Assembly (NCBI GenBank): GCA_035288845.1
Contig: DATDZB010000001.1
Coordinates: forward strand, 9,092-73,091
DNA: 64,000 nucleotides
Reading direction: 5' to 3'
From: Candidatus Nanoarchaeia archaeon
GTDB lineage: Archaea > Nanobdellota > Nanobdellia > SCGC-AAA011-G17 > GW2011-AR18
Every line of letters begins with the position of its first letter. Position 1 is the stretch's first letter. The notes under the pieces were generated by a model. That model was given only the letters and a program-made list of their open reading frames with translations, was not told where the DNA came from and made no database searches. The translations under genes and the position numbers were made by a program. Below are positions 1 to 46,480 of this stretch, one piece after another.

Positions 1-581
1 CACCTTTAATTGAAAGTTCAATGGAAGTACTTTTAGAAAGTTCAAAAAAAGGACCAAAAATAGTTTCTCAATCATTAATAAGTATTTCAACATATGTAGA
101 AAGAATACACAAAGTAGCAGAACGTCTTAAAGATTTACTTGCAGAAATAATTTCTTCAATGAAATCCCAAATTTCATTTTTAACACCAACAATAGCAGGA
201 ATTGTAGTTGGTATATCTTCGATGATTGTAAATATAATTGTCTCTTTAAATCTAAGAATTAATGATTTTACTTTAGAAGCTGGTGGTTCACCAGCTGATT
301 CAGCAGGAGCTTTAACAAATATTGGAGATTTATTCAAACTAAGTGGAATAATTCCCAATTATTGGTTCCAAGTTGTTGTAGGTCTATATGTTGTTCAATT
401 AGCATATATACTGACAGTATTACAAAATGGAATTGAAAATGGGAATGATAAAATAAATGAACGTTATTTACTTGGAAAAAATATTACAAGAAGTTTCTTA
501 ATTTATGTTGTAATAGCTTTAGTTGTAACTGTTTTATTTAATCTTATGGTAAAAAACTTATTATCTGGTGCACTGGGTTAA
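1..581 (+). CDS. C-terminal portion of a polytopic membrane protein, truncated at its 5' end by the window edge. Possibly a FlaJ/TadC-like type IV pilus/archaellum platform protein.
   Basis: The frame stays open back to position 3. There are three predicted TM helices at the C-terminus (IAGIVVGISSMIVNIIVSL, VVVGLYVVQLAYILTVL, FLIYVVIALVVTVLFNLMV). It lies directly upstream of a pilin gene battery. Confidence 0.35.
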   Translation, partial: PLIESSMEVLLESSKKGPKIVSQSLISISTYVERIHKVAERLKDLLAEIISSMKSQISFLTPTIAGIVVGISSMIVNIIVSLNLRINDFTLEAGGSPADSAGALTNIGDLFKLSGIIPNYWFQVVVGLYVVQLAYILTVLQNGIENGNDKINERYLLGKNITRSFLIYVVIALVVTVLFNLMVKNLLSGALG

Positions 582-630
582 ACTTGAAGTCTTAGTAAAC
601 CTTATAAATTTATTACTCTAATTTTAATAA

Positions 631-2184
631 ATGGCGCAAAAGAAAAAAGTTCAAAATAATGGAAAAAGTAAACCATATGTACTTGCACTTATAGTTTTCT
701 TAGTTTTAATAGCAATTATTGTAGCATCTAGTTTTTTTAATAAAATAATGCCGCTTCAAGATGAAAATGAAACAAATAATACTCAAGTAAATTTAAATCA
801 AACCCAATCAAGAAACACTTCTACAAATACAAGTCAGCAACCAAGACAAATAGATATTTCAACTGGTCCTAGTAGTGGTTCAGGAAGCTCAGGTAGAAGC
901 TCTAGTGGGGGGTCAAGTAGTGGAGGAAGCAGTTCTACTGCTACTAGTTCAGCACCACAACCAGTGCAGCAATCAGAGATTATAACAATAAGACGTAATT
1001 TTGATGATGAAGATACTCAAATTATAACTGGAAGTTCATCAAATAATATTTATCAATTTGTAGTAAATACACCAGACAGATTAACATTCACACAAATGTA
1101 CTTTAACTTAAAATTTGAAAATTATGTGGATGATGCAGCTATGTATGCTTTTAGGAATGCAAAATTAGATGTACAAAAACTAAATCAAGGAAATTGGCAA
1201 ACAGTAATGACAACAACACTTACCAATTATGTAAGGAGCGATATTTATCCAATTTATTTTAGTTCAAATATGCCTATAGAAATTCAAAATGGAGATCAAT
1301 TTCGTTTAGTTATATCAAATGTACCTTGCGAATTAGATTCACCACCAAATTCCAATTCGATTTCTCTAAGCATGTTAGATTTTAGAAATAGAACAACAAT
1401 GAATTTTATAACTAGCAGAAATATAACTTTTTTAGAACCAGAAATTTCAACAGACATTCAAGACTGTACTTTAGCTTACAACCCAGTAGGAGAAGCTTTA
1501 TGGTTAAGATTTGAAGAACCAGGTGGAACTTTACATGATTCAAGCGGTAAACAAAATCATGCTTTTGATCCTTTCGGAATAACTTATAGAACTGAAGGTC
1601 GTATAGATAGATGGGGAATTTATTTTACAGGTACAGATAATTATGTTCAAATGGATACTTCTACCTCTTTAGACTTTTCTGATCCAATAACTATTGAAAT
1701 GTTTATTTATCCAAAGAAATTAAATGCATGGCAAGGATTAATTGGTGAAGGAAATGGTATCGATAATTATAATTTGCTTGTAGCGCTTACTCCAAATAAT
1801 AAAATAGGTTTCTATACAGAACAAGGAAATTTATGGTATGAAGGTTCAACAACAATACTCTTAGCTCAATGGAAACATCTTGTAGTTACAGTAGGAAATT
1901 GTAATGTTGTAAACAATATACATACAGATTGCGATGTAAGAGTTTTCCTAAATGGTGTAGAAGAAACACTTACTGGTTTAAATGGGGCAAATATAAGTCC
2001 AGGACCAACGGATGTAAATTTAGGAGCACCAATGGCACAATCTTCAAAAGTATTAGGATCATGGCCAGGAAGTTTACCAAGATTATATCCTTACAAAGGA
2101 ATAATGGACAATGTAGTAATTTATCCAAGGGCTTTAACACCAAATGAAATAGCATTAAAGTATAACAGTTATGGTTTTAATTAA
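631..2184 (+). CDS. Class III signal peptide (pilin-like) protein with a Ser/Gly-rich linker and a C-terminal LamG/concanavalin-like jelly-roll domain.
   Basis: The N-terminus is basic and followed by one hydrophobic helix (KSKPYVLALIVFLVLIAIIVASS). There is an SSGSGSSGRSSSGGSSSGG linker. The C-terminal region carries Laminin_G_3-like motifs (DSSGKQNHAF.., IEMFIYPKKLNAWQGLIGEG.., LVALTPNNKIGFY, VRVFLNGVEE). Confidence 0.6.
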   Translation: MAQKKKVQNNGKSKPYVLALIVFLVLIAIIVASSFFNKIMPLQDENETNNTQVNLNQTQSRNTSTNTSQQPRQIDISTGPSSGSGSSGRSSSGGSSSGGSSSTATSSAPQPVQQSEIITIRRNFDDEDTQIITGSSSNNIYQFVVNTPDRLTFTQMYFNLKFENYVDDAAMYAFRNAKLDVQKLNQGNWQTVMTTTLTNYVRSDIYPIYFSSNMPIEIQNGDQFRLVISNVPCELDSPPNSNSISLSMLDFRNRTTMNFITSRNITFLEPEISTDIQDCTLAYNPVGEALWLRFEEPGGTLHDSSGKQNHAFDPFGITYRTEGRIDRWGIYFTGTDNYVQMDTSTSLDFSDPITIEMFIYPKKLNAWQGLIGEGNGIDNYNLLVALTPNNKIGFYTEQGNLWYEGSTTILLAQWKHLVVTVGNCNVVNNIHTDCDVRVFLNGVEETLTGLNGANISPGPTDVNLGAPMAQSSKVLGSWPGSLPRLYPYKGIMDNVVIYPRALTPNEIALKYNSYGFN

Positions 2185-2222
2185 CACACTAAATTTATAA
2201 ATTAAACAAATTCTATTATATT

Positions 2223-2348
2223 ATGGAAAAAAGAGGATTTGAAGATCTCGAAAATCAGACTTTATTTATTCTAATTTTTGCTGCAATAATAATTGGATTG
2301 ATTATTATATTTATGCTAACTAAAATTTCTGGAGGAATTTTTAAATGA
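2223..2348 (+). CDS. Mini pilin-like protein of 41 aa (MEKRGFED..). It is not in the ORF track.
   Basis: MEKRG is followed by a 25-aa hydrophobic helix. It is same-strand and sits between pilin genes. Its stop overlaps the start of the next gene. Confidence 0.45.
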   Translation: MEKRGFEDLENQTLFILIFAAIIIGLIIIFMLTKISGGIFK

Positions 2349-3562
2349 CTGTGAATAAAAAAGCAGAATTTCAAACAGTCTTAACTGGTTTAATTATATT
2401 TGCAATAATTGTGGGAATAACTTTTTTTATATTTAGGGCAACATCAGATGCTTTTACTAAACAGTCAAATGCCCAAGCAATTAGGTCTTGGGTAAATTTA
2501 AAAACTGCAACAGCAGGAACAGAAATAGCTTTTTCAGATAGTTCAAGTAGACCACCAGTAATTGATCTAGATAAACCTTTAGAAGTAGTTGAAGAAGATC
2601 TTTACTCAAAAGGAAAAGATCCGCCAAAAGCATTCAAAGAAATAGGAGATTCAATGGTAGATTGTTGGTATGCTTTTGAAAGTGGTGAAAAGGATTTTAT
2701 GAATTCAGTAGAGAAAGAAAAATTTTGTTTTTCATGCAGAATAATTAAATTTGAGGATGATATTAAAAAAGATAAAATAGCTCTTAAAGATTTTAATAAA
2801 TTTCTTTATACAAATAGTCCAGGAACAAATAACAAAGGAGAAAGACAAACTTACATGCAAATACTAAATAATGATCCAGAATTAAAACCAGAACCTAGCG
2901 ATCTTGAAAATGATGTAATATTAATTGATGATGATTTTAAAATTATATTTTTTGCAGCATCTGGTAGAGGAATAGTAAATATTGTTTCTAATCTATTAAT
3001 ACAAGAAAATTTAATTCCAGAAGAAGATAAAACAGGTTTTACAACAGAAAAAGGAATATCTAAATTTGATCCAGATAAAACTCTAGAACCAATTGATGAT
3101 GTTGAAGGCTTATCAGCTAGTGAAAAAGCTGAATTAGGTGCAGCTGCATCTGGTGTTGGTGTAGCAAATAAATATTTATTACCCAAACTTGCAGAAGAAA
3201 TATCTCAAGAAGCTGGAAAAGAAACAGCTGCACAAACAGAAAAAATAACAACTAAAAAAGCAATTGAAAAAGTAACAGTAGAAATAGGCAAAACTGGAGC
3301 TCCTGAAAAAATTATTTTTGAAGCTAGTGAAGAAGTAACTGAAAAAGCAGTTGCTCAAAAAGCAATCAAAAAAGCAATTGGAAAAATAATTGCTAAAAAA
3401 GGAGCAGCTATAGGTTTAAAATTTGTATCAAAAGCAGCAGGATGGCCTTTAGCAGTTGCAGGTGCAAGTTATGGTTTGTACGAAGTAGTTAAAGGAAAAA
3501 AACCATTTGTAGCACAAATAATGTTAATAGATTCAGATAAGGTAAATGAAATATGCAATTAA
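2345..3562 (+). CDS. Pilin-like membrane-anchored protein with an Ala/Lys/Glu-rich amphipathic C-terminal region.
   Basis: The N-terminus reads MTVNKKAEFQTVLTGLIIFAIIVGITFFIF. The C-terminal 120 aa are low-complexity AKE-rich with a second hydrophobic segment. Confidence 0.5.
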   Translation: MTVNKKAEFQTVLTGLIIFAIIVGITFFIFRATSDAFTKQSNAQAIRSWVNLKTATAGTEIAFSDSSSRPPVIDLDKPLEVVEEDLYSKGKDPPKAFKEIGDSMVDCWYAFESGEKDFMNSVEKEKFCFSCRIIKFEDDIKKDKIALKDFNKFLYTNSPGTNNKGERQTYMQILNNDPELKPEPSDLENDVILIDDDFKIIFFAASGRGIVNIVSNLLIQENLIPEEDKTGFTTEKGISKFDPDKTLEPIDDVEGLSASEKAELGAAASGVGVANKYLLPKLAEEISQEAGKETAAQTEKITTKKAIEKVTVEIGKTGAPEKIIFEASEEVTEKAVAQKAIKKAIGKIIAKKGAAIGLKFVSKAAGWPLAVAGASYGLYEVVKGKKPFVAQIMLIDSDKVNEICN

Positions 3563-3717
3563 AAAATAAAAAAGGAGATATAGAATTTGATACAATAATA
3601 AAACTAATTGTAGCAGTAATATGTTTACTAATTGCAATAAGTTTAATATATTTTTTCAAAGATAAATCTCTTGCAATAATAGATTCAATAAAAGATATTT
3701 TGAGGTTTGGTAAATAA
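3553..3717 (+). CDS. Mini pilin-like protein of 54 aa (MQLKNKKGDIEF..). It is not in the ORF track.
   Basis: There is a KKG motif followed by the hydrophobic helix IIKLIVAVICLLIAISLIYFF. It is tightly packed between pilin genes. Confidence 0.4.
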   Translation: MQLKNKKGDIEFDTIIKLIVAVICLLIAISLIYFFKDKSLAIIDSIKDILRFGK

Positions 3718-4799
3718 TGGCAGACATTTCTATGCCAAAAATGGGAGTTTTTATTTTAGGAATTATAGTTCTAGTTTTAATAATATCAATTTTAATAACA
3801 ACAGGAAATCCAACAATAAAATCATTTAAGAATTCAATAAATAAGCTAATTGGTATTGAAGATAAAGAAAAGAATAATCCAGAAACTGAAACAAACAAAG
3901 TTCCTGCTCATTTCTTAGAATTAGTAAAAAGTTACAAAGAATGTAAATATTCTCCAGATTCAAATTGTTATTGTAAATTATCTTACTCACCAACAACTCC
4001 AAACTCAATAATAGAATTTGAAAGTAATGGAAATAATCTAAACATAAATTTACACACAAACAATCTAATAGATTATAATTCAGTAACAAACAAAGGAGCT
4101 AGTTTACAATCTATACCAAATAAAGAATCTGTAACTTATGAAGAACAAGTAGCAAATCAAATTTTATATTTCAAAAATACTTATTTTTCTCCATCAATTT
4201 CAAACTCACAATTTAATTTAAATGAATTTACTCTAGCACAAAAACAGTATTTAACAAATAATGAGCTATATTCAACAAAAGATGTAAATGGAAAAGATGT
4301 AATAACTTTAAGCGGCGGTTTAGCAATTTATAGGTTTGATCAAGAAAAATCAGCTTTATTTTCGTTTTCAGATGTAAATGGGTTAAAAAAATGTAATTCT
4401 TATCCGCAAATAAATGAAGCAATAGCTGAATTAGAAAGGTTAAGTAATCAAATTAATTCATGCAAAACTCAACAAATTAATTGTGAATATATTCCAAAAT
4501 TACCAAAAGATTATGTAATCTCTATTGAAAATAAAGAATTAGTATTAAAATTCAGAGACAGAGTTTTACAAACTAACAAACCATTTACAGAAAAATTATG
4601 TTTATTCGATGGTTTAGAAGATTCAAAACCAGAAGATGGAAACACATTTTATATATTAAACTTTAATGATCCTATAAAAATGCAAATTTTTTCATTTAAA
4701 GACACGACTTGTTTTTTACCTTTTGATCAAGATCTAATTGAATTAGAAAAATCAAGTCAGCAACGAAGTGTAATAGCAAGATCAATAATAGATAGCTAA
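3717..4799 (+). CDS. Secreted/pilin-like Cys-containing protein.
   Basis: The N-terminus reads MADISMPKMGVFILGIIVLVLIISILITTG. It is part of the pilin battery. Confidence 0.5.
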   Translation: MADISMPKMGVFILGIIVLVLIISILITTGNPTIKSFKNSINKLIGIEDKEKNNPETETNKVPAHFLELVKSYKECKYSPDSNCYCKLSYSPTTPNSIIEFESNGNNLNINLHTNNLIDYNSVTNKGASLQSIPNKESVTYEEQVANQILYFKNTYFSPSISNSQFNLNEFTLAQKQYLTNNELYSTKDVNGKDVITLSGGLAIYRFDQEKSALFSFSDVNGLKKCNSYPQINEAIAELERLSNQINSCKTQQINCEYIPKLPKDYVISIENKELVLKFRDRVLQTNKPFTEKLCLFDGLEDSKPEDGNTFYILNFNDPIKMQIFSFKDTTCFLPFDQDLIELEKSSQQRSVIARSIIDS

Positions 4800-4839
4800 C
4801 CAAAAAGTTTAAATAGAAAACATACAGGTTAAGTAAAAG

Positions 4840-5268
4840 ATGCTAAAAATAAATAAAAGAGGACAAGGTTTACCTATGAATGTTATTGTAATAGCAATCA
4901 TAGTTCTAGTTGTTTTAGTGATTTTAATTGCTTTCTTTGCTGGTGGGTTTTCATCCATTGTGGGCAAAATAAGAGATTTATTTGGCGGAACAGTTCAAGG
5001 TCAAGTAATTGATAACACAATACAAACCTGCGAAACATTCTGTGATTCAGCTAAAGCAACAGCTGTAAATTCGCAAAGAAATACTGCTTTTTGTACAAGA
5101 TCTTTCTTAGTAGATCAGGATGGTAATGCAGACACGCCGCCAAGAATAATGAAATGTGGTTCTACATCAAGGGGAAGAGCTCCAACAATACAAGAACAAG
5201 AAAGAGGAATTGAAGATGGCGGAGATTTAGGTGTTACATGCCCAGGTGTATCCTGTGGCGCAGCTTAA
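4840..5268 (+). CDS. Archaeal type IV pilin (class III signal peptide).
   Basis: The canonical KRGQG processing motif (MLKINKRGQGLP) is followed by the hydrophobic helix NVIVIAIIVLVVLVILIAFFAGG. There are Cys pairs in the mature part. Confidence 0.65.
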   Translation: MLKINKRGQGLPMNVIVIAIIVLVVLVILIAFFAGGFSSIVGKIRDLFGGTVQGQVIDNTIQTCETFCDSAKATAVNSQRNTAFCTRSFLVDQDGNADTPPRIMKCGSTSRGRAPTIQEQERGIEDGGDLGVTCPGVSCGAA

Positions 5269-5269
5269 T

Positions 5270-5446
5270 ATGAATAAAAAAGCATCTTCTTTATCTTTAG
5301 AAACAATTATTATTGCCATTATTGTTTTAGTTGTAATTATTATGGTTGCTTATTTTGTTTTAAAACAAGGCGGATTACTTGCAACTATTATTGGAGATCA
5401 AGCAAATAACTCAGTTGCTTTAATTCCAGAAAACCCATTACCATAA
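5270..5446 (+). CDS. Mini pilin-like protein of 58 aa (MNKKASSLSLETIIIAIIVLVV..).
   Basis: This is the internal Met of the listed 71-aa ORF. It starts 2 nt after the upstream stop. It has the MNKKAS N-terminus shared with neighbouring genes. Confidence 0.45.
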   Translation: MNKKASSLSLETIIIAIIVLVVIIMVAYFVLKQGGLLATIIGDQANNSVALIPENPLP

Positions 5447-5477
5447 GAAATAAATACTCTCATTCTATTATTTAACT

Positions 5478-6473
5478 ATGAAAAATAAAAGAGGGCAAGG
5501 TTATGCTGGTTACATTTTATTGTCTTTAATTATTGGTGCCTTCGCTGTATTTTTAGTTATAACTGCTCTTTCAACTACTTCAGATTTAATCCCAGGAACA
5601 GATGTAAAATGTTCAAATTCTAAATATTGGTCTGAAGAAAGAGGTCTTCATGATTTATTAGAAAATTTAGATAATAATAAAGAAACATCAGAAAGTTTTC
5701 TTTTCATCAATAATGACTGTAAATTAGTAAGTTTTACATTAAATCAAGGTTTCGGAAATATTTTATTATCAACTGAACAACCACGAGAACCTCTGCTTTG
5801 TTTATGTAAAATAGAACGTGAATCTTCTTCAGAAGCAGTTTGTGAACCAAATTATTGTTATAAGTTTAAAAACTTTGATTCTATAAACAATGAACAATTT
5901 TCAACTGAAGATCTAAAAGATTATGTTTCATTAAAATTTATTAAAGAGGGAAAAACATTAAGAATAATTTCAGCTGGAGATGAAAAACAAGCACAGCCAC
6001 TAATTTATTCTAAATCAGATCAAACAAAGTACTTAGATGAAACTGGTTTAATTAATCGTTTAGTTATAATTTTTAATACAAAACAAATAACATCTTATCT
6101 TCCTATTGTAAAATTAAAAGAAAGTGGTTTTTTAATTCCGCAAGAGATTACAAATAAAGAAGGATTTACACAATTATTTGATTTAAAATTAAGTTATTCC
6201 AAATTACCGGGACAAACTAATGAAGATTATTTAATTAATGCTAAAGAAATAGATCCAAATGCAGTTAAAGCAGCATTAATAGAAATCAACTTAGAAAAAT
6301 CTAAATTAAATGGTTTAAACAAAGACAAAATTGTATTATACTATAAAGTAAATAATAAATGGGCTTATTCAAAATTAACTTGTGAAGAAGCAAGCACCAA
6401 GTTCCTATGTAAAACGTCATTAACTGGTTTTTCAAATCAATTTGCAATAAGCACAATTGAAGAAGTTGCATAA
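5478..6473 (+). CDS. Archaeal type IV pilin-like protein (class III signal peptide), 331 aa.
   Basis: MKNKRGQGYAGYILLSLIIGAFAVFLVITALS carries a KRGQG motif followed by a hydrophobic helix. Confidence 0.65.
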   Translation: MKNKRGQGYAGYILLSLIIGAFAVFLVITALSTTSDLIPGTDVKCSNSKYWSEERGLHDLLENLDNNKETSESFLFINNDCKLVSFTLNQGFGNILLSTEQPREPLLCLCKIERESSSEAVCEPNYCYKFKNFDSINNEQFSTEDLKDYVSLKFIKEGKTLRIISAGDEKQAQPLIYSKSDQTKYLDETGLINRLVIIFNTKQITSYLPIVKLKESGFLIPQEITNKEGFTQLFDLKLSYSKLPGQTNEDYLINAKEIDPNAVKAALIEINLEKSKLNGLNKDKIVLYYKVNNKWAYSKLTCEEASTKFLCKTSLTGFSNQFAISTIEEVA

Positions 6474-6474
6474 A

Positions 6475-6831
6475 ATGAATAAAAAAGCATCTATGGAATT
6501 CTTGGCAGAAAAACTTGTAGATTTAGTTATGTTAGTAATTGTAATCGTAGTTTTCTTATCAGTAATAACTTCAATAAAAGGAAATGAAGTTCATGATCTA
6601 AATGTTGAATCAAGAGATTTAGCTTTTGTAAAAGATGCTATAACAATGACAAATCACAAAATAGATTATAATTATAAAACAAGAGAAAATGTTGAAATTG
6701 AAATAAATGAAAATGATTGTGTGATTAAAACTAGTAATAAACAAGGAGAAGCAAGTCCGAAATCTTTCTATTGTATAAACAACCAATTATCTAATAAAGA
6801 AAAAATTAATCTAAAGGTTAAAAATGAATAA
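6475..6831 (+). CDS. Pilin-like protein. The likely start is MNKKASMEF.
   Basis: MNKKAS is followed by the helix LVDLVMLVIVIVVFLSVITS. The upstream Met of the listed ORF overlaps the preceding gene. Confidence 0.45.
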   Translation: MNKKASMEFLAEKLVDLVMLVIVIVVFLSVITSIKGNEVHDLNVESRDLAFVKDAITMTNHKIDYNYKTRENVEIEINENDCVIKTSNKQGEASPKSFYCINNQLSNKEKINLKVKNE

Positions 6832-7303
6832 AAAAGGAATATTTGATATTTTAGAAAGAGGAATTTATATGACTTTTATAATTATCGTAGCAGTTTTCAT
6901 AGCAGCAGTTGCTTTATCTTATATTTCTGAAGAAATAAAAACTGAAAATATTGAGACTTATTTAATATTAAAAGGCCTGGTTAATTCTGAATCATGCTTA
7001 GCTTATAACGATGGAACAAGAATTCATCAAAATATTATTGATCTAAACAAATTAACTTCTAATAGACTAAGTTCTTGCCTTTCTAAAACAGATACAGGAT
7101 ATTTAATAACTTTAACAAACTTAAATGGAAACCTTGTAAAATCAGAAAGCAATTTAGACGTAAGACAAAAGGCATATCTTCCTATTTGTAAAAGTATCAA
7201 AGGATTTATTTGCACTAAAAAATCAACTTTAATAAATTATTATGAAAACAATCAAATTAAAACAGTAATTATGAATTTAGAGGTGATAAAACTTGACAAA
7301 TAA
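6824..7303 (+). CDS. Pilin-like protein.
   Basis: MNKKGIFDILERGIYMTFIIIVAVFIAAVALS. Confidence 0.45.
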   Translation: MNKKGIFDILERGIYMTFIIIVAVFIAAVALSYISEEIKTENIETYLILKGLVNSESCLAYNDGTRIHQNIIDLNKLTSNRLSSCLSKTDTGYLITLTNLNGNLVKSESNLDVRQKAYLPICKSIKGFICTKKSTLINYYENNQIKTVIMNLEVIKLDK

Positions 7304-7808
7304 AAAAGGAGACTTAGCATTTGGTTTATATTTTTGGCCTACATTCTCACTATTAATAATAACATTAATTATATTTGGAATAATATTTTTTATAGTGGGA
7401 ATTAAATCTGACAAAATAACAATAAACTCTCAAGTTTATGAAGATAGTTCGAAAATAATTACAGTCTCTAAATCACCAACAAATGTAATAATTAATGAAA
7501 AAAATTTATCCATCTCAGAATTAATATCTTTAGCACATAAAGATGAAAGTTATAAAGAAAAATTAAATACCGAATTTACTTATTTAATAAATAAAATTCC
7601 AAAACCAGAAAATAAAAAATCAAATTGGAATGCAAAGATAATTATTGATAATAATGAATTTTTAAAAATAGATCAATCTTCAGTTGGTTCAAGTAATTAT
7701 TTTAATCAAGTAATGATAATCCCTTTAGAAGATAAGAAGATAGCAAAATTAGAACTTTCTTTATCTTGTAGACTATGTAAATTACAAGATTTAGGGGAGT
7801 TTGTATAA
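7293..7808 (+). CDS. Pilin-like protein.
   Basis: MTNKKGDLAFGLYFWPTFSLLIITLIIFGIIFFIVG. Confidence 0.45.
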   Translation: MTNKKGDLAFGLYFWPTFSLLIITLIIFGIIFFIVGIKSDKITINSQVYEDSSKIITVSKSPTNVIINEKNLSISELISLAHKDESYKEKLNTEFTYLINKIPKPENKKSNWNAKIIIDNNEFLKIDQSSVGSSNYFNQVMIIPLEDKKIAKLELSLSCRLCKLQDLGEFV

Positions 7809-8633
7809 ATGAATAAAAAAGGAATATTCTTTCCATTATTTGTTTTTATAACCATTTTCTTATTATTAACTATGCTTTATGTAGTAAATGATGAAGAAAG
7901 TGAAAAAAATGATTTAATTGGATTAAAAGCAGTAAATATAATAAAATTACAAGATGAAACTGAAAAAATCCAATCTTATCTAGATTTATCAACAAAATAT
8001 GCAGCAAATGAAGCTCTAAAAAAACTAGCAGCTAATGGGGGTTATTCAGAAGGAAGGTGTAAAAAAACACAAAAAGATTTAATCAACACAGAAGAATACA
8101 TTATTTTAGAAACTTGTCCAGAACTGAATATAAATAACGAATTTAATTCTCAATTAAAAGAAGAAATAAAACAATATATAAAAATTTATGAAACAAGCTA
8201 TATTGAAGCAGACTTAGAAAAGTATTATGGACTTGGAATTTATGATTATGTCAGTTCATTAACAAAACCAGAAGAATTAACATTTAATAAACAATATACA
8301 GAAAAAGTTAGAGAAACAAATGTTTTAGAAATTAAAGACTCAGTAGTTTATTTTTCAGAAATAGATTTACAAATAGAAAACACAACAGATTCATTTATCA
8401 AATTAAGTCCAAAAATAAAACTGCAAAAACAAAATTTTGAAATTTACAATGAATTATATCTGGAAATAAAAGAAAACTGTTTGCAAAAAGAAACAACGAA
8501 ATGTGAAGGTTCTTTGAAAATAGAATTCCCAGAAATAACAATAGAAGTTGAGAATGAATTAGTAAAAATAAATTTACCTTCTAAACTAGGCAAAATAAGG
8601 TTAGCTTTTAAAGAGTATAAAAAACCAAGTTAG
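7809..8633 (+). CDS. Pilin-like protein.
   Basis: MNKKGIFFPLFVFITIFLLLTMLYVV. This is the same MNKKGIF N-terminus as the gene at 6824. Confidence 0.45.
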   Translation: MNKKGIFFPLFVFITIFLLLTMLYVVNDEESEKNDLIGLKAVNIIKLQDETEKIQSYLDLSTKYAANEALKKLAANGGYSEGRCKKTQKDLINTEEYIILETCPELNINNEFNSQLKEEIKQYIKIYETSYIEADLEKYYGLGIYDYVSSLTKPEELTFNKQYTEKVRETNVLEIKDSVVYFSEIDLQIENTTDSFIKLSPKIKLQKQNFEIYNELYLEIKENCLQKETTKCEGSLKIEFPEITIEVENELVKINLPSKLGKIRLAFKEYKKPS

Positions 8634-8687: not shown

Positions 8688-9656
8688 ATGATTCTAGACT
8701 ACGACACAATATTAAGTAAAATAATAGATACTAGTGGTCTTTCTAGAGAAGATATTGAAAAAAAGATCAAACAAAAACAATCAGACTTACAAGATTTAAT
8801 ATCTAGGGAAGGAGCAGCCCACATTATTGCAAATGAATTAGGAGTAAAGCTCTTTGACGGAACTACTAAAACATTAAAAATAAATCAAGTTCAAGTTGGA
8901 TTAAATTCTGTTACTTTACTGGGAAAAGTAATGAATATCTATGAAATTAAAAGTTTTGAAAAAAATGGAAGAAAAGGTAGAATTGGATCTATGCTTCTCG
9001 GTGATGAAACTGGAGCAATAAGAATAGTTATTTGGGATGAAAAATTAATAGATCTAATAAAAGAAATAAAACAAGAAGACACATTAAAACTTTCTAATGC
9101 TTATTCAAAGCAAAATGCTAATGGTTTTAAAGAATTACATTTAGGAAGTAAATCGCAAATAATAATTAATCCTGAAAATGAATTAATAAAAGAAGTAAGA
9201 ACAAATACTACGACATTTACACCTGCTGAAAAAAAGAAAATAAGAGATTTAAATGCACCAGGATTCGCAGAAGTATTTGGTACAATAGTTCAAGTATTTG
9301 AACCTAAACATTACAATTCATGTCCTGTTTGTAGTAAAAAAGTAATGCCAATAGGAGATAAATTTACTTGTCAAGACCATGGCGAAGTAAAAAGTAAAAA
9401 AGTTCCAATATTAAATATTTATTTTGATGATGGAACTGGAAATATAAGGGCAGTTCTTTTTAGAGAACATGCAGAAAATATTCTTAATAATAAAGTTCAA
9501 TTAGATGAGATAAAAAAAGAGTGTTTGGGAAAGCAATTAATTTTAAAAGGAAAAATAACTAAAAATGAAATGTTTAATAGAATGGAATTGGTTGTTAATG
9601 GATTAGAACAGCCAGATCCAGAAAAGATAATTGCTGAATTGCAAAATGATGTATAA
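8688..9656 (+). CDS. rpa: Replication protein A (ssDNA-binding, OB folds plus a C-terminal zinc ribbon).
   Basis: The N-terminus has GLSREDIEKKIKQKQSDLQDLISREGAAHIIANELGV, as is typical of archaeal RPA. A CPVCSKK...CQDHGEV zinc motif lies between OB-fold regions. Confidence 0.7.
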   Translation: MILDYDTILSKIIDTSGLSREDIEKKIKQKQSDLQDLISREGAAHIIANELGVKLFDGTTKTLKINQVQVGLNSVTLLGKVMNIYEIKSFEKNGRKGRIGSMLLGDETGAIRIVIWDEKLIDLIKEIKQEDTLKLSNAYSKQNANGFKELHLGSKSQIIINPENELIKEVRTNTTTFTPAEKKKIRDLNAPGFAEVFGTIVQVFEPKHYNSCPVCSKKVMPIGDKFTCQDHGEVKSKKVPILNIYFDDGTGNIRAVLFREHAENILNNKVQLDEIKKECLGKQLILKGKITKNEMFNRMELVVNGLEQPDPEKIIAELQNDV

Positions 9657-19052: not shown

Positions 19053-19910
19053 TTAAACAAAAAACAAAAAGAAATCACCAAATAAAATACTAACAATAAA
19101 ACCAATTAAAAAACCAGGTACAAAAGGTATTCCTTCTTTTACTAAAACAGTTTTAATTTTATTTTTCTTCAAAATTTCAATATCTTCTTTAGTCAAACCA
19201 ATATTTCTAATCTTACAAATTAATTTGTTTGCTTTAAAAACATCTTTTGCAAGCCAGTCTCCTTCAACTAATTTATTTACTTTTATAAATTTATACATTA
19301 AAGAATTTTCAATAATTTTAGTAAATTGAATTATAATTGAAGAAATTAAACAAATTAATATTACTAAAGAAACCATTTTAAAAATAAAACTATCAAATAT
19401 AGAATAACTAATTAAAATTAAAAGCAGTCCAAAAATAAATAAAATAATTAAAATTTTAAATGAAGTTTTACTAATATCTTTCTTTACTTTGCTATAATTT
19501 TTAACTCCTAAAAATATGCTGTAAACAATTCCATAAACAACACCAGCAACAAGTATATTTAATAGTAAAGTTCCTAAAAAAGGCAGACTATTTAGAGAAA
19601 ATTTAGATATCACTTGGTAATTTCCAAACACAACGCCCAAACCCATTAATAATTTACAATCTCCTCCACCCCATTGTTTAGTATAATACATTAAATTAGC
19701 AAATACAAAAAATATAGCAAAACCAATTATGCCATAAATTAAATAACTAAAATCTTTTTCAATAAAAGAATAAATTAATCTTGCCCCAAAACCAACAGCA
19801 ATAAAAGAATAACTAACCAAGTCAGGAACTTCTCTTTTTTTAATATCTGTAATACTGCATATTATTAAAACTATTAAAGCCACAATAACTAAAAAATACC
19901 AAAAAATCAT
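19053..19910 (-). CDS. Archaeal prepilin/preflagellin peptidase (A24 family, PibD/FlaK-like).
   Basis: It is a polytopic membrane protein. The first catalytic Asp context is ITDIKKREVPD. The second is WGGGDCKLLMGLG (the GGGDxK motif). Confidence 0.8.
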   Translation of the reverse strand: MIFWYFLVIVALIVLIICSITDIKKREVPDLVSYSFIAVGFGARLIYSFIEKDFSYLIYGIIGFAIFFVFANLMYYTKQWGGGDCKLLMGLGVVFGNYQVISKFSLNSLPFLGTLLLNILVAGVVYGIVYSIFLGVKNYSKVKKDISKTSFKILIILFIFGLLLILISYSIFDSFIFKMVSLVILICLISSIIIQFTKIIENSLMYKFIKVNKLVEGDWLAKDVFKANKLICKIRNIGLTKEDIEILKKNKIKTVLVKEGIPFVPGFLIGFIVSILFGDFFLFFV

Positions 19911-19994: not shown

Positions 19995-21194
19995 ATGCCT
20001 AGATCAAAAAAAGCTCAATCTGAAGGTGGAGCAGTAGCTGTAATTCTTATTATAATTGCTTTGTTTATGGTACTTTATTTATTGTTTATTTCTCCAGAAG
20101 AAAGGGAAAGAATTCTAGATTCAAATAACACAGGTAGTTCTATAGGTACATCTGGAAGATCTTCATTTTCAAGAATTGAATTAGTTGCAGAATCTCCTGG
20201 TTTGGTAACACCAACAAAAGAATTTGCAATTGTTCATCGGCTCCCTGGAGTCAATATTTTTCTTAAAGAGGAGCCAAGTTTTAAACCACTTTCATCTGAT
20301 TTAACTGTTTCAAGAACATTATTGTCTGAAAATTCTCCCACATTAAAATTTAATCTAGATCATTTAGAAGAAACTACAACAGCTAGTTTAATTTTCTCAG
20401 TAGAAGAATCAGAAGGAACTTTAGAATTAGAAATTAATGATAATATTTTTTACAGTAAACAAATACAAAAAAAAGGTGTAGAAATAGTAGAAATTCCTAA
20501 ATCTTCATTGATAGATAGAAATGAAATAAAATTTAGAGTTTCTTCTCCAGGAATAGCATTCTGGGCAACAAATAAATATCATCTAAAAGATATTAGTGTT
20601 AAACAAGAATATGTAAAAAGAAATAGAGAAGAAACAAGAACATTTACTATAACACCCCAAGAAAAATTAAACATGTTAAATACTAAATTAAAATATTCAC
20701 AAACATGCAACGATCCTTTACAAGACCAGCTTACAACTTTAGATATTTTAATTAATGATAAAAGATCACATACGGCAGAAGTAAGATGTGCTAATACAGA
20801 AGAAGAAATAGAAATAGATCCAGATTCATTAATTGCTGGATCAAATACTATTACTTTTAGATTGGAAAAAGGAGATTTTACTTTTAATCAATTAAAAATA
20901 GAAACAGAATCAAGAGAATCTGAAAGACCAACATATTTCTTCTCTTTAACAGACAGACAATTTGATGATATTCAAAGAGGAAGAAGAGGATTAAAATTAC
21001 AAATATTAATGGATAACAATCAAAGAGTTAAAAATGCTAGAATATTAATAAATAGTAATAATGTTCTAATGCAGGTAGAAAGAAATGATTTTGTTTTAGA
21101 CTTGAAAGATTATGTTCTAGAAGGAACAAACTTCATTAAATTAATTCCTGTAAATTCTTTCAATATTATAGGCTTTAAAGTAATTTTAGAATAA
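19995..21194 (+). CDS. Membrane-anchored or secreted hypothetical protein.
   Basis: The N-terminus is MPRSKKAQSEGGAVAVILIIIALFMVLYLLF, a possible KAQ class-III-like site. The rest is a predicted extracellular beta-rich region. Confidence 0.45.
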   Translation: MPRSKKAQSEGGAVAVILIIIALFMVLYLLFISPEERERILDSNNTGSSIGTSGRSSFSRIELVAESPGLVTPTKEFAIVHRLPGVNIFLKEEPSFKPLSSDLTVSRTLLSENSPTLKFNLDHLEETTTASLIFSVEESEGTLELEINDNIFYSKQIQKKGVEIVEIPKSSLIDRNEIKFRVSSPGIAFWATNKYHLKDISVKQEYVKRNREETRTFTITPQEKLNMLNTKLKYSQTCNDPLQDQLTTLDILINDKRSHTAEVRCANTEEEIEIDPDSLIAGSNTITFRLEKGDFTFNQLKIETESRESERPTYFFSLTDRQFDDIQRGRRGLKLQILMDNNQRVKNARILINSNNVLMQVERNDFVLDLKDYVLEGTNFIKLIPVNSFNIIGFKVILE

Positions 21195-21205
21195 AAAGGT
21201 GATAA

Positions 21206-22522
21206 ATGACTAGTGCAACTGCTGGATCAATTCCAGGAAATCCATTTCAAGAAGTATTTGGTCCAATAGGTGGTTGGCTAAAAAAAGCATTATTTACTTT
21301 AATAGTTGGTCTGCTTTGGGCAGCAGTATTTGCTTTTGTTGTAGGTGCAGGTGTCTTCTTATTTTATCAATTTAGATCTGGAAATGTTGAATCTACAGTA
21401 GAGCATGTAAATGTTGCTGGACAAGAAACAGTAGGAAATCCTCTTAAATTAGCAATAAAACAAAATGCTCCAGGACTTTACTACACTTTTGTTGAACCTG
21501 AAAGTCTTCAACCATATGCAATAGATTCAGTAGTACAAAATAATAAAAATAATGAGGAACTAGGTGTTAAAATAGTAGAATTTGAACCGCAAGTTTCTTT
21601 CTTCAGACCAAATTCAGAAATTAGTTTAAGAGGAAGAATAAAAGCAAGAGGTTTAGACCAGCCAACAAAAATAGAAGTTTATTGTCAATTAGAAGAAGAA
21701 CAAATGATACCAGCAGAACTTCTTGGTACAAATGTTATTGGACTTAACATAGGAACTATATTCAAAGATCAAACAACAGAATTTAGAGTTAATTGTAATT
21801 TCCCAGATGGAGTTTCAACTACAAAAGCAATAGAATCTAGAACAGCAAAATTAGTTGTAATTTATGAATTTTCTACAGTATCTTCTCAGCGTATTTGGGC
21901 ACTAAATAGAGAATCTCTACAAGACTTGCAAAGCAAAGGAATAGACCCATTTGTACAATATGACAAAAGAGATCCATTAAAAGATAAAGATAATAAAATA
22001 AGAGCTGAACAAACTCCAGGACCAATCAACTTAGGTTTACAAATTGATTTCCCGCAGCCAATTACTACTAATTCAAGATATGAACTGCTTGTACAAATTG
22101 CACCACAATCATATGGGGTATTACAAGAACTTAACTACTTGAAAATAAAAGTTCCTGCAGTTAAAGATCTAAATTTAGCTCTACAAGGAGGAGAAGCTTT
22201 AGGTTCAGGATCAAAATGCGATTTTACTTATGCAGGACAAACAGATGATGGTTACAAAGAGTATCAATTAGTAGATTCCAAATTACAAGAAACAAATAAA
22301 GTGTGTGATAAAGAATTACTAAGAGAATATGCATTCACAGAACAAGCATGTTTAGAATTTTTCAAACAACCATTATTCAAATGTAATTTTATTGCAACAA
22401 CTGTACCAGAAACTTTACTTTCAGATTTAATAAAAGCAGAAGCACTTTATTCAGTTAAAGTAGAAAAGAAACTTGTTATAGACATTAAAGGTCCACCTTC
22501 AAGTGCTGCAGGAGTAGCTTAG
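21206..22522 (+). CDS. Membrane-anchored hypothetical protein.
   Basis: The N-terminal TM region is LFTLIVGLLWAAVFAFVVGAGVFLFY. The large C-terminal domain contains Cys. Confidence 0.45.
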   Translation: MTSATAGSIPGNPFQEVFGPIGGWLKKALFTLIVGLLWAAVFAFVVGAGVFLFYQFRSGNVESTVEHVNVAGQETVGNPLKLAIKQNAPGLYYTFVEPESLQPYAIDSVVQNNKNNEELGVKIVEFEPQVSFFRPNSEISLRGRIKARGLDQPTKIEVYCQLEEEQMIPAELLGTNVIGLNIGTIFKDQTTEFRVNCNFPDGVSTTKAIESRTAKLVVIYEFSTVSSQRIWALNRESLQDLQSKGIDPFVQYDKRDPLKDKDNKIRAEQTPGPINLGLQIDFPQPITTNSRYELLVQIAPQSYGVLQELNYLKIKVPAVKDLNLALQGGEALGSGSKCDFTYAGQTDDGYKEYQLVDSKLQETNKVCDKELLREYAFTEQACLEFFKQPLFKCNFIATTVPETLLSDLIKAEALYSVKVEKKLVIDIKGPPSSAAGVA

Positions 22523-22530
22523 AATTAAAA

Positions 22531-23070
22531 ATGTGCTTTAGTAAAATTTCTACATTCTTTAAAAATTTAACAACAAATAAATTAGAATCTAAAAATAATA
22601 AAGAATTAGTAAATGAATTTATTAACTGTATAAAAAATTTCTACAAAGAAGTAGAAAAATTAGAACTTACTAGATATTTTATGAAATTAGAAAAGAAAGC
22701 AGTAAAAAAGAGAGTAGAATATGAATTATTTTTACTAGATAGGATTGAAGATATATTAGATGGGGACGAAGAAAGGAATGGGCCTTGGAGTTTTACGAAA
22801 GATGAAAAACATGAAATTAGTGAAGAATATCCAATTTTTAATATTTGTAACATGGCTCAGATTGAATTTCTAAGAGACTGGAAGCAAGAAGAAGGTGAAA
22901 GCGTGTTTCATCCATTTGCTGATGTAGAAATAAAAGCTTCTGAAGTAAGAAAATTAGATGAGGAAACTCAAGAAAAATTAATTAAATATAAAAGACTTGG
23001 TAGAGAAATAGCAACAGAACTATACAAAAGACTTGATCTTGAAGCTAGAAGAAGACTTAAAAAAATTTAA
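22531..23070 (+). CDS. Hypothetical cytoplasmic protein.
   Basis: It is a 179-aa charged, helical ORF. Confidence 0.4.
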   Translation: MCFSKISTFFKNLTTNKLESKNNKELVNEFINCIKNFYKEVEKLELTRYFMKLEKKAVKKRVEYELFLLDRIEDILDGDEERNGPWSFTKDEKHEISEEYPIFNICNMAQIEFLRDWKQEEGESVFHPFADVEIKASEVRKLDEETQEKLIKYKRLGREIATELYKRLDLEARRRLKKI

Positions 23071-23118
23071 ATCAAGAACATAGAAATCTTTTTAACTACG
23101 AATTTATCTTAATTTACT

Positions 23119-24057
23119 ATGAAATTAAAGTGGTGTTATCTAGTTATTGTTTTATTATTAATATTAACAGCTTGTTCTTCAATTTCAGATAGAATTCCTT
23201 TTTTAGGTGGAAAACAAGCACCAGTTGGAGGTTCAGGATTAACTTTAACTTTTGTAAATGTTCCAGCAAATAATGAATTAATTTATGAAGGAGCAGAATT
23301 CGATGTTGAAGTAGCTTTAGAAAATAATATCGTAAATGAACAAGGATTAACTGGCAGAATATGTTTACAAGATGATTTAACTGATAACTTTGGCGGAATT
23401 ACTTCAAATCTATGTCAAAATTTTAATTTACCTTCAGCTACAAAATCTTCTAATGGTAAAGTTACATCAGTACAAGAAAATTTCCTTTTCAAACCACAGC
23501 CCTATAAGGGATTACAAAAAGAACTAGAGCTTTCAAATAGTATAAATGCAGTTGTTGCATATGAACTAGAATCTATTTCTGGTTCTGAAGTGTGTATAAA
23601 AAGAAGAGAAGCAGAAGTAGCAAATTGTCTTAACCAACAAAAATTAGAGACAAGACAATCAGATTTACCTCTAAAAATACAAAGTATTGAAGCAAAAGTT
23701 TCATCAAAAGATCAATCAGAATATGTAGTTATATTAGATATTAGTTTAGAAAAAGCAACAAAAGGACAACTTTTAACTCCAGGAAGTATAACTTCTGGTA
23801 GTATAGAAGCACCAACAGCAGAAGTGAATTTTGAAATAAGCATTGATGGAAAACCTATAAAATGTAATACTGCTTCTGCAGGCAAAGTAACATTTAGATC
23901 TAATGAAAACGAAAAACTTATTAAATGCACAGGACCTATAACATTAAATCAAGATTCAATCATGGCACAAATAACTATGAAAATGAGTTATGGTTTCAAG
24001 CAGACTTTAAATGGTCCAAAAATTAGATTAATAAAAAATGAGGAATTGATAACATGA
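23119..24057 (+). CDS. Putative lipoprotein or secreted surface protein.
   Basis: There is a signal peptide with a lipobox-like LTAC|SS. The C-terminal region is beta-rich with Cys pairs. Confidence 0.5.
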   Translation: MKLKWCYLVIVLLLILTACSSISDRIPFLGGKQAPVGGSGLTLTFVNVPANNELIYEGAEFDVEVALENNIVNEQGLTGRICLQDDLTDNFGGITSNLCQNFNLPSATKSSNGKVTSVQENFLFKPQPYKGLQKELELSNSINAVVAYELESISGSEVCIKRREAEVANCLNQQKLETRQSDLPLKIQSIEAKVSSKDQSEYVVILDISLEKATKGQLLTPGSITSGSIEAPTAEVNFEISIDGKPIKCNTASAGKVTFRSNENEKLIKCTGPITLNQDSIMAQITMKMSYGFKQTLNGPKIRLIKNEELIT

Positions 24058-46374: not shown

Positions 46375-46480
46375 AAAACAATGAAAAATAAATTTCTCTT
46401 ATAAGGATTTATAATCTCTAATATATAAGATTAAGTAATAGAAATCTCATCTACTTAAAAGTTGTAAAATTCAGAAAAAT

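Follow-up and report, generated by a model that had tools for sequence, protein, structure and literature searches.

Introduction

The com operons of monoderm bacteria are ordered ATPase, platform, then one small and several minor pilin-like genes. In Methanococcus maripaludis the Epd pilus ('System 1') is encoded by an operon of about 11 genes in which ATPase, platform and many class III proteins lie together, with two separate platform genes, a shaft pilin lacking a globular head, one protein with an adhesin-like domain and a dedicated 9-TM peptidase, EppA. The euryarchaeal 'System 2' plan is described in a 2026 preprint as combining class III pilins with motif-less pilin-like proteins, membrane proteins of small size and one large protein resembling adhesins; one example of 'Clade 2 / System 2' is PilB3-PilC3 of Haloferax volcanii with PilA1-6, and the ATPase afGspE (AF0659, PDB 2OAP) has been placed in Clade 2 (Makarova 2016).

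Here we describe positions 1 to 8633 of a 64 kb stretch of DNA (the window) from a DPANN archaeon (Woesearchaeota/Nanoarchaeia). They probably make up the distal two-thirds of an archaeal type IV pilus (type IV filament) locus, a lineage-specific version of a familiar machine. Among known plans, the locus comes closest to System 2. It has the same mixture of protein types, a platform encoded by one gene, and an ATPase with long N- and C-terminal extensions whose best solved match is afGspE, its putative placement in Clade 2 following from this best PDB hit and not from phylogeny. As among the PilA paralogues, the hydrophobic helices of three proteins (4840, 5270 and 3553; genes are named by their first coordinate, Table 1) are similar. 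The locus departs from System 2 in that its pilins have no PilA/Pilin_N (PF07790) match, the T2SSF HMM does not recognize its divergent platform, three headless mini-pilins are present, and the host belongs to DPANN and not to the Euryarchaeota.

Clustering of ATPase, platform and many class III proteins, headless pilins and an adhesin-like domain are shared with the Epd locus, whereas the present locus has a single two-domain platform gene, the peptidase is of FlaK/PibD type, and no Class_IIIsignal/DUF361 match is found. Likenesses extend to bacteria, since the ATPase matches CpaF of Tad/Flp systems (7e-25), the very short headless pilins resemble Flp, and the order of ATPase, platform and pilin battery resembles that of comG operons. 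The host is archaeal, however, and the locus lacks a TadB/TadC split, a secretin and the Flp G/XXXXEY motif.

Organization of the locus

The region is filled by 13 consecutive open reading frames, all on the plus strand, in agreement with the count of about 13 co-oriented genes in the first-pass annotation: the platform fragment (3-581) and twelve genes that each encode a short basic N-terminus followed by a single hydrophobic helix. Frames abut or overlap at 3553/3562, 3717/3717, 6824/6831, 7293/7303 and 7808/7809, indicating a single operon. The window starts at position 9371 of sequence L001, with which the overlapping sequence is identical, and on this contig the gene order begins with three small 4-TM proteins and two coiled-coil proteins, followed by an intein-interrupted FlaI/TadA-family ATPase, the 723-aa platform protein and the battery of twelve. 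Ten of these encode predicted prepilins whose class III leader is very short (consensus M-N-K-K-G/A), comprising three headless mini-pilins of 41-58 aa, one small-headed protein of 142 aa and six larger 'minor pilin' types of 118-405 aa. The remaining two are N-terminally anchored without a cleavage motif, one of them carrying a C-terminal LamG lectin-like domain.

The GenBank annotation lists all battery genes as 'hypothetical' apart from the LamG gene, such that the putative pilus gene set of this tiny groundwater archaeon is unannotated. The host is archaeal as judged by RadA, eIF2-alpha and an intron-bearing tRNA, and its relatives are labelled Woesearchaeota or Nanoarchaeia, bearing out the DPANN-type host suggested earlier.

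Table 1. Features of the locus and associated genes in the window. A slash marks the putative cleavage position; loci are related loci in which the family is found.
Feature	Coordinates	Strand	Length	N-terminus	Remarks
Platform C-terminus	1-581	+	192 residues		Residues 532-723 of 723-aa polytopic membrane protein
LamG protein	631-2184	+	517 aa		Anchor helix, Ser/Gly-rich linker, C-terminal LamG/concanavalin-like domain
Headless mini-pilin 1	2223-2348	+	41 aa	MEKRG/FEDLENQTLFILIF...	
Pilin-like	2345-3562	+	405 aa	MTVNKKA/EFQTV...	35 loci
Headless mini-pilin 2	3553-3717	+	54 aa	MQLKNKKG/DIEFD...	C-terminal LRFG motif; 31 loci
Cys-containing protein	3717-4799	+	360 aa		N-terminal anchor helix; 27 loci
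Small-headed pilin-like	4840-5268	+	142 aa	MLKINKRG/QGLPMNVIVIAIIVLVV...	
Headless mini-pilin 3	5270-5446	+	58 aa	MNKKA/SSLSLETIIIAIIVLVV...	
Pilin-like	5478-6473	+	331 aa	MKNKRG/QGYAGY...	24 loci
Pilin-like	6475-6831	+	118 aa	MNKKA/SMEFLAEK...	22 loci
Pilin-like	6824-7303	+	159 aa	MNKKG/IFDILERG...	22 loci
Pilin-like	7293-7808	+	171 aa	MTNKKG/DLAFG...	TTG start; 17 loci
Pilin-like	7809-8633	+	274 aa	MNKKG/IFFPLFVF...	Last gene of battery; 20 loci
RPA-like gene	8688-9656				Conserved; follows last battery gene
A24 prepilin/preflagellin peptidase	19053-19910	-			FlaK/PibD type
Class III-like N-terminus	19995-21194	+	399 aa	MPRSKKA/QSEGGAVAVIL...	Divergently adjoins peptidase
Class III-like N-terminus	59073-61109	+	678 aa	MEKRG/QAAVFLIIG...	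Away from locus

Platform protein and motor ATPase

The complete platform gene lies at L001:7780-9951, and its fragment in the window closes with the three transmembrane helices read there in the first-pass annotation (hydrophobic stretches at fragment residues about 57-86, 122-140 and 160-188, corresponding to helices 549-623, 650-677 and 681-720 of the AlphaFold model). The 723-aa sequence itself has no match in Pfam, NCBIfam or PDB sequences, but 18 of 38 diverse homologues match PF00482 (T2SSF; best 3.2e-10) with both halves covered, one scoring above the Pfam threshold over the first half (32.8 bits, cut-off 25.2) and a different one matching in the second. Foldseek searches with the AlphaFold model gave local matches to the cytoplasmic domains of OutF, EpsF and PilC (probability 0.97-0.98, TM 0.68-0.76) and no significant global match for the full-length protein; EpsF is also the top PDB profile match, and the N- and C-terminal halves align with each other as an internal repeat (E 1.1e-4). 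From its homologues and predicted structure, the 723-aa protein is thus a divergent two-domain T2SSF platform of FlaJ/TadC/PilC type, and the FlaJ/TadC-like assignment originally made for the first reading frame holds by this indirect route.

HMM searches had been proposed for the first reading frame and for the DNA upstream; the direct search with the former was negative, and the latter encodes, just outside the window and adjoining the platform gene on the same contig, a FlaI/TadA-type motor ATPase. This ATPase carries a 516-aa intein, removal of which yields a T2SSE match of 1.8e-16, and it matches afGspE (2OAP, 6e-28), CpaF and FlaI (5e-17) among PDB entries, as well as the NCBIfam FlaI model (7.7e-33). 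Neither a retraction ATPase nor any second ATPase is present within the window.

Class III signal motifs

A [KR][GA] motif at residues 4-8, immediately ahead of the hydrophobic stretch, is present in ten of the twelve battery genes (2223, 2345, 3553, 4840, 5270, 5478, 6475, 6824, 7293 with its TTG start, and 7809), and the canonical class III site is absent from 631 and 3717. The class III N-termini ascribed to the whole battery are therefore found, by a home-made cleavage-site rule, in all but these two. When both strands of all 64 kb were scanned, the rule matched ten times within 2223-8633 (6.4 kb), always on the plus strand, and four times in the other 57.6 kb, where two of the matches are internal to other genes; in a stricter scan, the Poisson probability of at least eight matches at the rate of the rest of the window is 2.5e-9.

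A set of 193 class III open reading frames from 43 related loci shares the MNKKG/MNKKA leader, with a modal length of five residues and conservation that extends beyond the filter (K at -3 in 88%, N at -4 in 54%, M at -5 in 50%). This leader consensus favours ATG 5270 as the start of mini-pilin 3, where gene callers chose GTG 5231, and suggests 6475 rather than 6457 for the 118-aa gene. Several genes (6475, 6824) have charged residues separating the putative cut from the hydrophobic core, which leaves the precise site uncertain, and 6824 has a second possible site after G13. The twelve proteins match none of the curated families of pilins or archaellins that Pfam and NCBIfam contain, and Pilin_N, Class_IIIsignal, Arch_flagellin and TIGR02537 gave no match among them.

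Individual battery proteins

The 631 protein matches Laminin_G_3 over residues 334-508 (4.1e-17) and is a candidate adhesin; its PGAP product name is 'LamG domain-containing protein'. It has no homologue in 80 related loci, and in relatives a mini-pilin directly follows the platform without a 631-type gene between, so that 631 looks like an insertion specific to this lineage, separating the platform gene from mini-pilin 1. The latter frame is also called by JGI's gene caller (start MEKRG/FEDLENQ...), and counterparts by position, of 33-46 aa and 26-80 nt after the platform, occur in at least 12 related loci. The sequence TTTATAAA at 2194-2201 lies about 25 nt 5' of the mini-pilin 1 ATG, which in an AT-rich genome is weak evidence.

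The 2345 protein has no match in Pfam or NCBIfam, and the LRFG end of mini-pilin 2 is conserved in its family. Orthologues of the 3717 protein in other loci likewise have no K-K-G leader, and the protein is a conserved component that is either atypical or not a pilin. The 142-aa protein (4840) has about 40 homologues, exclusively in Woesearchaeota, in which the first ~48 residues are nearly invariant and six cysteines are invariant, and mini-pilin 3 has a helix similar to its own. In the AF2 model of the 142-aa protein (pLDDT 83), a helix spans residues 13-47 and the head is small and helical, with three strands. A Foldseek search with this model found no PDB match; the pilin folds to be sought in the mature domains were thus not recovered in the one head folded, and 'pilin fold' applies to the N-terminal helix only. 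We consider the 142-aa protein a candidate structural pilin.

Conservation and origin of the battery

The platform family is present in at least 589 species-representative genomes. The same layout recurs in many Woesearchaeota, and the complete AR20 genome keeps the gene order with positional orthologues. Among 37 loci with at least 9 kb of downstream sequence, 19 have the platform followed by 6-10 same-strand class III reading frames, against three class III matches in total on the opposite strand, and about 15 have no such genes after the platform. Each battery family other than 631 is found in 17-35 loci.

From the similar N-termini, the first-pass annotation had judged local duplication likely, which we do not favour: MNKKG/MNKKA is a family-wide leader, the heads show no mutual similarity by BLAST or profile-profile comparison such that paralogy is undetected, and positional orthologues exist in other species. 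The recurrent layout and the breadth of the platform family point instead to an old conserved operon. Identity to relatives is 29-61% for battery proteins, 72-73% for the platform and 78-79% for the ATPase, and faster divergence of the battery is expected for exposed surface subunits.

Prepilin peptidase, proposed assembly and alternatives

The prepilin peptidase predicted downstream was confirmed as an A24-family enzyme (Peptidase_A24 PF01478, 3.7e-16; FlaK NCBIfam, 1.5e-17; FlaK structure 3S0X, 1.5e-8) with both catalytic aspartates kept (D22 and GGGD84). It lies about 10 kb from the battery on the opposite strand, and no second A24 peptidase is present within the window.

The sequences show the gene content, the conservation of the operon, the homologies of the three machine components (ATPase, platform and peptidase) and the signature at the N-termini; from these we infer cleavage, filament formation, the identity of the major subunit and an adhesive role. 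The hydrophobic helix would insert each prepilin into the membrane, and the A24 peptidase would cleave the prepilin after G/A. A hexameric ATPase would dock on the cytoplasmic domains of the platform and lift processed subunits out of the membrane, giving a helical fibre held by their N-terminal helices. Small subunits would form the shaft, and the large-headed subunits and LamG protein would prime or cap it and confer binding specificity. Attachment to surfaces or host cells is the most likely use.

It is possible, though unlikely, that the same machinery builds a non-adhesive structure, either a short DNA-uptake pseudopilus or a device for secretion or display of the large-headed proteins. 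The ComGA-ComGB-ComGC..GG operon of monoderm bacteria is a parallel for such a pseudopilus, with com-type gene order also at this locus; DNA uptake would be useful to DPANN cells because they cannot make nucleotides, and competence genes are reported in ultra-small groundwater cells (PMC9938205). However, no DNA-channel gene, and nothing like ComEC, ComEA or DprA, is seen among the part of the window's genes scanned, the LamG lectin-like protein and fast-diverging heads fit adhesion better, and the tested archaeal systems of the same plan are adhesive.

We think it very improbable that the twelve genes encode ordinary signal-anchored or Sec-secreted surface proteins that merely neighbour the ATPase and platform and are not built into a fibre. 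The unmatched curated pilin families, the folded head that is not pilin-like, and the resemblance of 631 and 3717 to simple N-terminal anchors are as such proteins would have it, but M-N-K-K-G/A directly before the helix is conserved well past what the filter requires, strand and position are in at least 19 species strictly tied to the platform, the 41-58-aa headless members are little more than leader and helix, which makes no sense for secreted proteins, and the A24 peptidase found here has no archaellum genes to serve. An archaellum (motility) operon has next to no likelihood. The ATPase, platform and A24 peptidase families are common to both systems and the FlaI and FlaK models match here, yet the ATPase is nearer to afGspE and CpaF than to FlaI, and archaellins (PF01917), FlaH/ArlH, FlaF/G (ArlF/G) and FlaC/D/E/X (ArlCDE/X) are absent from the twelve genes and 10 kb upstream, by which this reading is effectively refuted.

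Returning to the pilus, the peptidase may also act outside the battery. The 678-aa protein (59073), which has no Pfam match, is a probable further substrate, as is the 399-aa protein (19995), which has a weak BcsB/CBM-like match (5.7e-7).

A divergent platform protein precedes the pilin-like genes

The window has a G+C content of about 27% and carries archaeal housekeeping genes (RadA, eIF2-alpha, SRP54, FtsY, TruD and an intron-bearing tRNA). An exact match of its proteins assigns it to a Rifle aquifer scaffold (ANAN16-1 scaffold_806), and in GenBank these proteins are found in a 'Candidatus Nanoarchaeia archaeon' MAG. Within 1–8633 the first-pass annotation had described thirteen co-oriented genes with a basic N-terminus and one helix, and the ORF list agrees with this as thirteen plus-strand ORFs, mostly abutting or overlapping, of which the first is a fragment and the other twelve (the battery, named here by start position) each begin with a short basic stretch followed by one hydrophobic helix. 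The 41-aa ORF that encodes mini-pilin 1 is also present in the JGI annotation, and at least 12 related loci have an equivalent of 33–46 aa immediately following the platform gene. The conserved MNKK[G/A] leader favours ATG starts at 5270 and 6475 over the upstream GTG or TTG starts at 5231 and 6457 given by gene callers or the ORF list, and gene 7293 requires a TTG start to yield MTNKKG. The sole sizeable intergenic gap of the battery, at 2185–2222, contains the sequence TTTATAAA at 2194–2201, approximately 25 nt 5' of the mini-pilin 1 ATG; this would weakly fit a putative archaeal promoter inside the battery, from which a leaderless transcript would start; octamers this rich in A and T are common in the genome.

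The fragment at the start of the window makes up the C-terminal 192 residues of a protein of 723 aa and carries its final three membrane helices. Searches of Pfam, NCBIfam and PDB sequences gave no match for the fragment, the full platform protein or a profile of its close homologues, and the T2SSF model (PF00482) matched neither the fragment nor the full 723-aa protein, whether at its gathering threshold or at E ≤ 0.1. The family is nonetheless large, with more than 4,200 matches among the 8,000 candidates scored and 1,279 clusters at 50% identity, and a locus search with an alignment of closer homologues places it in 589 or more species-representative genomes, nearly all of which bear the label Woesearchaeota, Nanoarchaeia or Nanoarchaeota. 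All named members that we encountered are annotated as 'hypothetical protein'.

When 38 diverse members (mutual identity 25–52%) were scanned singly, 18 matched T2SSF, with a best E-value of 3.2e-10, and the matches fall in both halves of the protein, at approximately 138–290 (in one homologue with 32.8 bits against a cut-off of 25.2) and, in another, at approximately 468–608. The two halves of the family profile also align with each other (E 1.1e-4 over 149 columns), revealing an internal repeat. An AlphaFold model of the platform (pLDDT 76, pTM 0.70) gave nothing with E < 0.001 in a global Foldseek search of the PDB, and local Foldseek alignment recovered the cytoplasmic domains of OutF, EpsF and PilC with probabilities of 0.97–0.98, target TM scores of 0.68–0.76 and an rmsd of about 3 Å; EpsF was also the best match of the diverse family profile to the PDB, weakly (E 0.41). 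The homologue matches, the local structural matches and the internal repeat together identify the 723-aa protein, indirectly, as a divergent two-repeat platform of the GspF/PilC/TadC/FlaJ type. The proposal that the first ORF is FlaJ/TadC-like with three terminal TM helices is thus upheld by its homologues, structure and helices, although a direct HMM search with the ORF is negative.

Positions and strands of the features discussed (those prefixed L001 are on the same contig, in a stretch reaching 10 kb further upstream, whose position 9371 is position 1 of the window and whose overlap with the window is identical; a single number is a start position)
Feature	Position	Strand	Remark
Three 4-TM and two coiled-coil proteins	L001:57–2705		Beside ATPase gene
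Intein-bearing ATPase	L001:2781–6623		1,280 aa, just upstream of window
Two ORFs	L001:6679–7716		140 and 185 aa, between ATPase and platform genes
Platform fragment	3–581	+	
LamG gene	631	+	
Mini-pilin 1	2223–2348	+	Directly after platform
Mini-pilin 2	3553	+	C-terminal LRFG
142-aa protein	4840	+	
Mini-pilin 3	5270	+	SLSLET-type start
Prepilin peptidase	19053–19910	-	
Surface-type proteins	19995–25007	+	Adjoin peptidase
M23 protein pair	44872–48445	-	500 and 654 aa
tRNA gene	55658–55743	+	
678-aa protein and following ORF	59073–64000	+	ORF extends past window end

ATPase, peptidase and candidate accessory genes

The first-pass annotation had suggested a search upstream of the window for FlaI/TadA, and a T2SSE ATPase was located there on the same contig. 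A LAGLIDADG intein of 516 aa is inserted in the conserved Asp-box motif, between IED and T, and the extein is a 764-aa ATPase that matches T2SSE at 1.8e-16 and whose best solved matches are afGspE (6e-28), CpaF (7e-25) and FlaI (5e-17). Among 74 related loci with an ATPase gene, tblastn detected the intein in only 8. The prepilin peptidase expected downstream was borne out as an A24 family enzyme (PF01478 at 3.7e-16) that aligns to FlaK (3S0X) with both catalytic aspartates matched (D22 and GGGD84), and it also gives a weak Arc_PepC_II signal. No second ATPase, platform or peptidase was found in the window.

The ATPase gene has as neighbours the genes for three tandem paralogous 4-TM proteins (180–188 aa) and, on the opposite strand, for two coiled-coil proteins. 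These genes are kept beside the ATPase in 44–57 of 80 related loci, including loci that lack the pilin battery, and their products, which have no Pfam or NCBIfam match, may be system-specific accessory components. The two ORFs between the ATPase and platform genes have no counterpart in the 80 related loci and no family match; in AR20, a complete Woesearchaeota archaeon genome, the ATPase and platform genes abut directly.

Predicted class III signal peptides

Class III sites were scored with a home-made rule, [KR][GA] at residues 4–8 directly before the hydrophobic stretch. By this rule 10 of the 12 battery genes have a predicted site, whereas 631 and 3717 do not (nor do the orthologues of 3717), so that the class III reading of the first-pass annotation holds for most of the twelve and fails for these two. 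Over the whole window, both strands included, the rule gives 10 matches within 2223–8633, all on the plus strand, and 4 elsewhere, 2 of which are internal to other genes; the Poisson probability of the clustering, calculated from an earlier and stricter scan, is 2.5e-9. An alignment of 193 related ORFs on the putative cut has M at -5 (50%), N at -4 (54%), K at -3 (88%), K/R at -2 and G/A at -1, with a modal leader of five residues and an acidic residue within +1 to +7 in 65%. Because the filter fixed positions -2 and -1 alone, the other leader positions reflect genuine conservation.

The curated pilin and archaellin families Pilin_N (PF07790), Class_IIIsignal (PF04021) and Arch_flagellin (PF01917) gave no Pfam match at E ≤ 0.1 to the eleven battery proteins other than mini-pilin 1, and NCBIfam pilin and archaellin N-terminal models matched none of these eleven at E ≤ 0.1 or E ≤ 1. 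With the exception of the LamG protein, PGAP and GenBank name all of them 'hypothetical protein'. That the battery proteins are cleaved and assemble into a filament is inferred, as are the major subunit and the function.

The battery is a conserved set of distinct genes

Conservation was examined in the 37 related loci that continue for 9 kb or more downstream of the platform. Between 6 and 10 class III-type ORFs follow the platform on the same strand in 19 of them, and in about 15 there is none or one, so the pilin genes are not always adjacent to the platform. Opposite-strand matches total just 3. Loci without following class III genes include L015, L049, L052, L061, L062, L069, L072, L073, L075, L079 and L085; two of these, L049 and L069, were mapped and have no convincing plus-strand genes after the ATPase–platform pair.

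The gene order in AR20 is the same as here, with three 4-TM paralogues, two opposite-strand coiled-coil genes, ATPase, platform, about ten class III genes, an RPA-like gene and YdjM, and orthologues of 2345, 3553, 4840, 6824 and 7809 can be recognised there in unchanged order. All battery genes but 631 belong to families found in 17–35 loci, and the three families of headless mini-pilins occupy fixed positions across loci. These positional orthologues across species indicate that the genes of the battery are old and distinct from one another. Local duplication, which the MNKKG and MNKKA starts had suggested, is rejected: BLASTP similarity among the twelve is confined to the first 30–45 residues, and hhalign comparisons of eight head-domain family profiles all gave probabilities below 3%, such that the starts represent a common leader with no similarity between the heads. 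In the closest relatives identities are 72–73% for the platform, 78–79% for the ATPase and 67–70% for the RPA-like protein, and fall to 29–61% for the battery proteins, as expected for exposed, interaction-determining subunits.

The 142-aa protein has a nearly invariant N-terminal stretch of 48 residues and six invariant cysteines, and its model (pLDDT 83) has the expected long N-terminal helix with a small helix-rich head, for which Foldseek found no match among solved structures. For the LamG gene 631, by contrast with the rest of the battery, none of 80 related loci has a counterpart, and it occupies the spot at which relatives have nothing between the platform and mini-pilin 1; together these point to a lineage-specific insertion, which would have brought in a lectin-like candidate adhesin.

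Relationship to known systems

Judged from sequence, the plan of the locus is that of a classical archaeal type IV pilus, with a predicted ATPase, platform, peptidase and class III-type subunits all present. It appears to fit best with System 2, which, in the description of a 2026 preprint, has one platform gene, an ATPase whose termini are extended, membrane proteins, large adhesin-like proteins, and several class III pilins together with pilin-like proteins lacking the motif. The locus architecture agrees with that description, and the closest solved ATPase, by which the clade of the ATPase is judged, is afGspE, a Clade 2 member (Makarova 2016). The Epd pilus (System 1) likewise has headless pilins, but its platform is encoded by two separate genes and its peptidase is of the EppA (9-TM) type, in contrast to the single 723-aa gene with both T2SSF repeats and the FlaK/PibD-type peptidase found here. 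The order of ATPase, platform and pilin genes recalls that of bacterial comG operons, and for this reason we retain as an alternative that the locus would encode a pseudopilus for DNA uptake or display, which we consider improbable. An archaellum is rejected, as no specific component was found: archaellins, ArlH, ArlF/G, ArlCDE and ArlX gave no match in the battery or in the 10 kb upstream.

The presumed lifestyle of DPANN archaea is one of attachment to other cells, yet few of the responsible genes are known. The locus shows where one large DPANN order keeps its missing platform and pilins, which are conserved across hundreds of species, and why routine annotation overlooks both. No paper describing this Woesearchaeota locus was found in the literature. 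The 2016 archaeal pilus census includes no Woesearchaeota and did not find pilins for the nanoarchaeal ATPases. A 2020 preprint stated that type IV pilus components are 'missing in DPANN genomes', a sentence dropped in the published version, and used the supposed absence to assign piliated ultra-small cells to CPR bacteria; type IV filament systems have already been reported in some DPANN in a recent preprint. Because this type of machine is well known, the locus is of value for annotation and ecology and not as a source of new concepts: the gene set, the MNKK[G/A] leader motif and the candidate lectin adhesin can be used for re-annotation, metaproteomic searches and studies of host interaction.

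A possible, if doubtful, extension of the type IV pilus assignment is that the locus represents a Woesearchaeales-wide subtype of type IV filament missed by current censuses. Such a subtype would be marked by a platform invisible to T2SSF HMMs, by conserved accessory genes of its own (the three 4-TM paralogues and the two coiled-coil genes), and by a fixed set of about ten 'hypothetical' pilin-like families that includes the three headless mini-pilins. If this is true, it could account for the pili-like connections observed in groundwater between ultra-small cells and hosts, and would correct one preprint's view that DPANN genomes are without type IV pilus components.

Other genes in the window

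Several surface-type proteins are encoded next to the peptidase, among them a protein of class III type (399 aa) that weakly matches a BcsB/CBM-like domain, a 438-aa membrane protein, and the products of 23119 and 24054, whose N-termini end ...LTAC and ...LSGC and resemble lipoprotein lipoboxes. Towards the end of the window lies the gene for a protein of class III type with 678 aa (MEKRG/QAAVF..., the slash marking the putative cut), and directly after it comes an ORF that exceeds 964 aa and has a Sec-type signal peptide; neither has a Pfam match, and the two may constitute a second module, for the surface or for adhesion, that the same peptidase serves.

Two adjacent proteins, each with one Peptidase_M23 domain, are encoded in the stretch of highest G+C in the window (0.32–0.33 versus about 0.27). 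M23 enzymes cleave the cross-links of bacterial peptidoglycan, and their domains are notable in a wall-less archaeon; the pair may be directed at hosts or prey that are bacteria, or gene transfer may have brought it in. For the tRNA gene ARAGORN gives an impossible 4-base anticodon, and alignment to the Rfam model has a 16-nt insert in the anticodon loop, as compared with 3 in the model, which indicates an archaeal tRNA intron.
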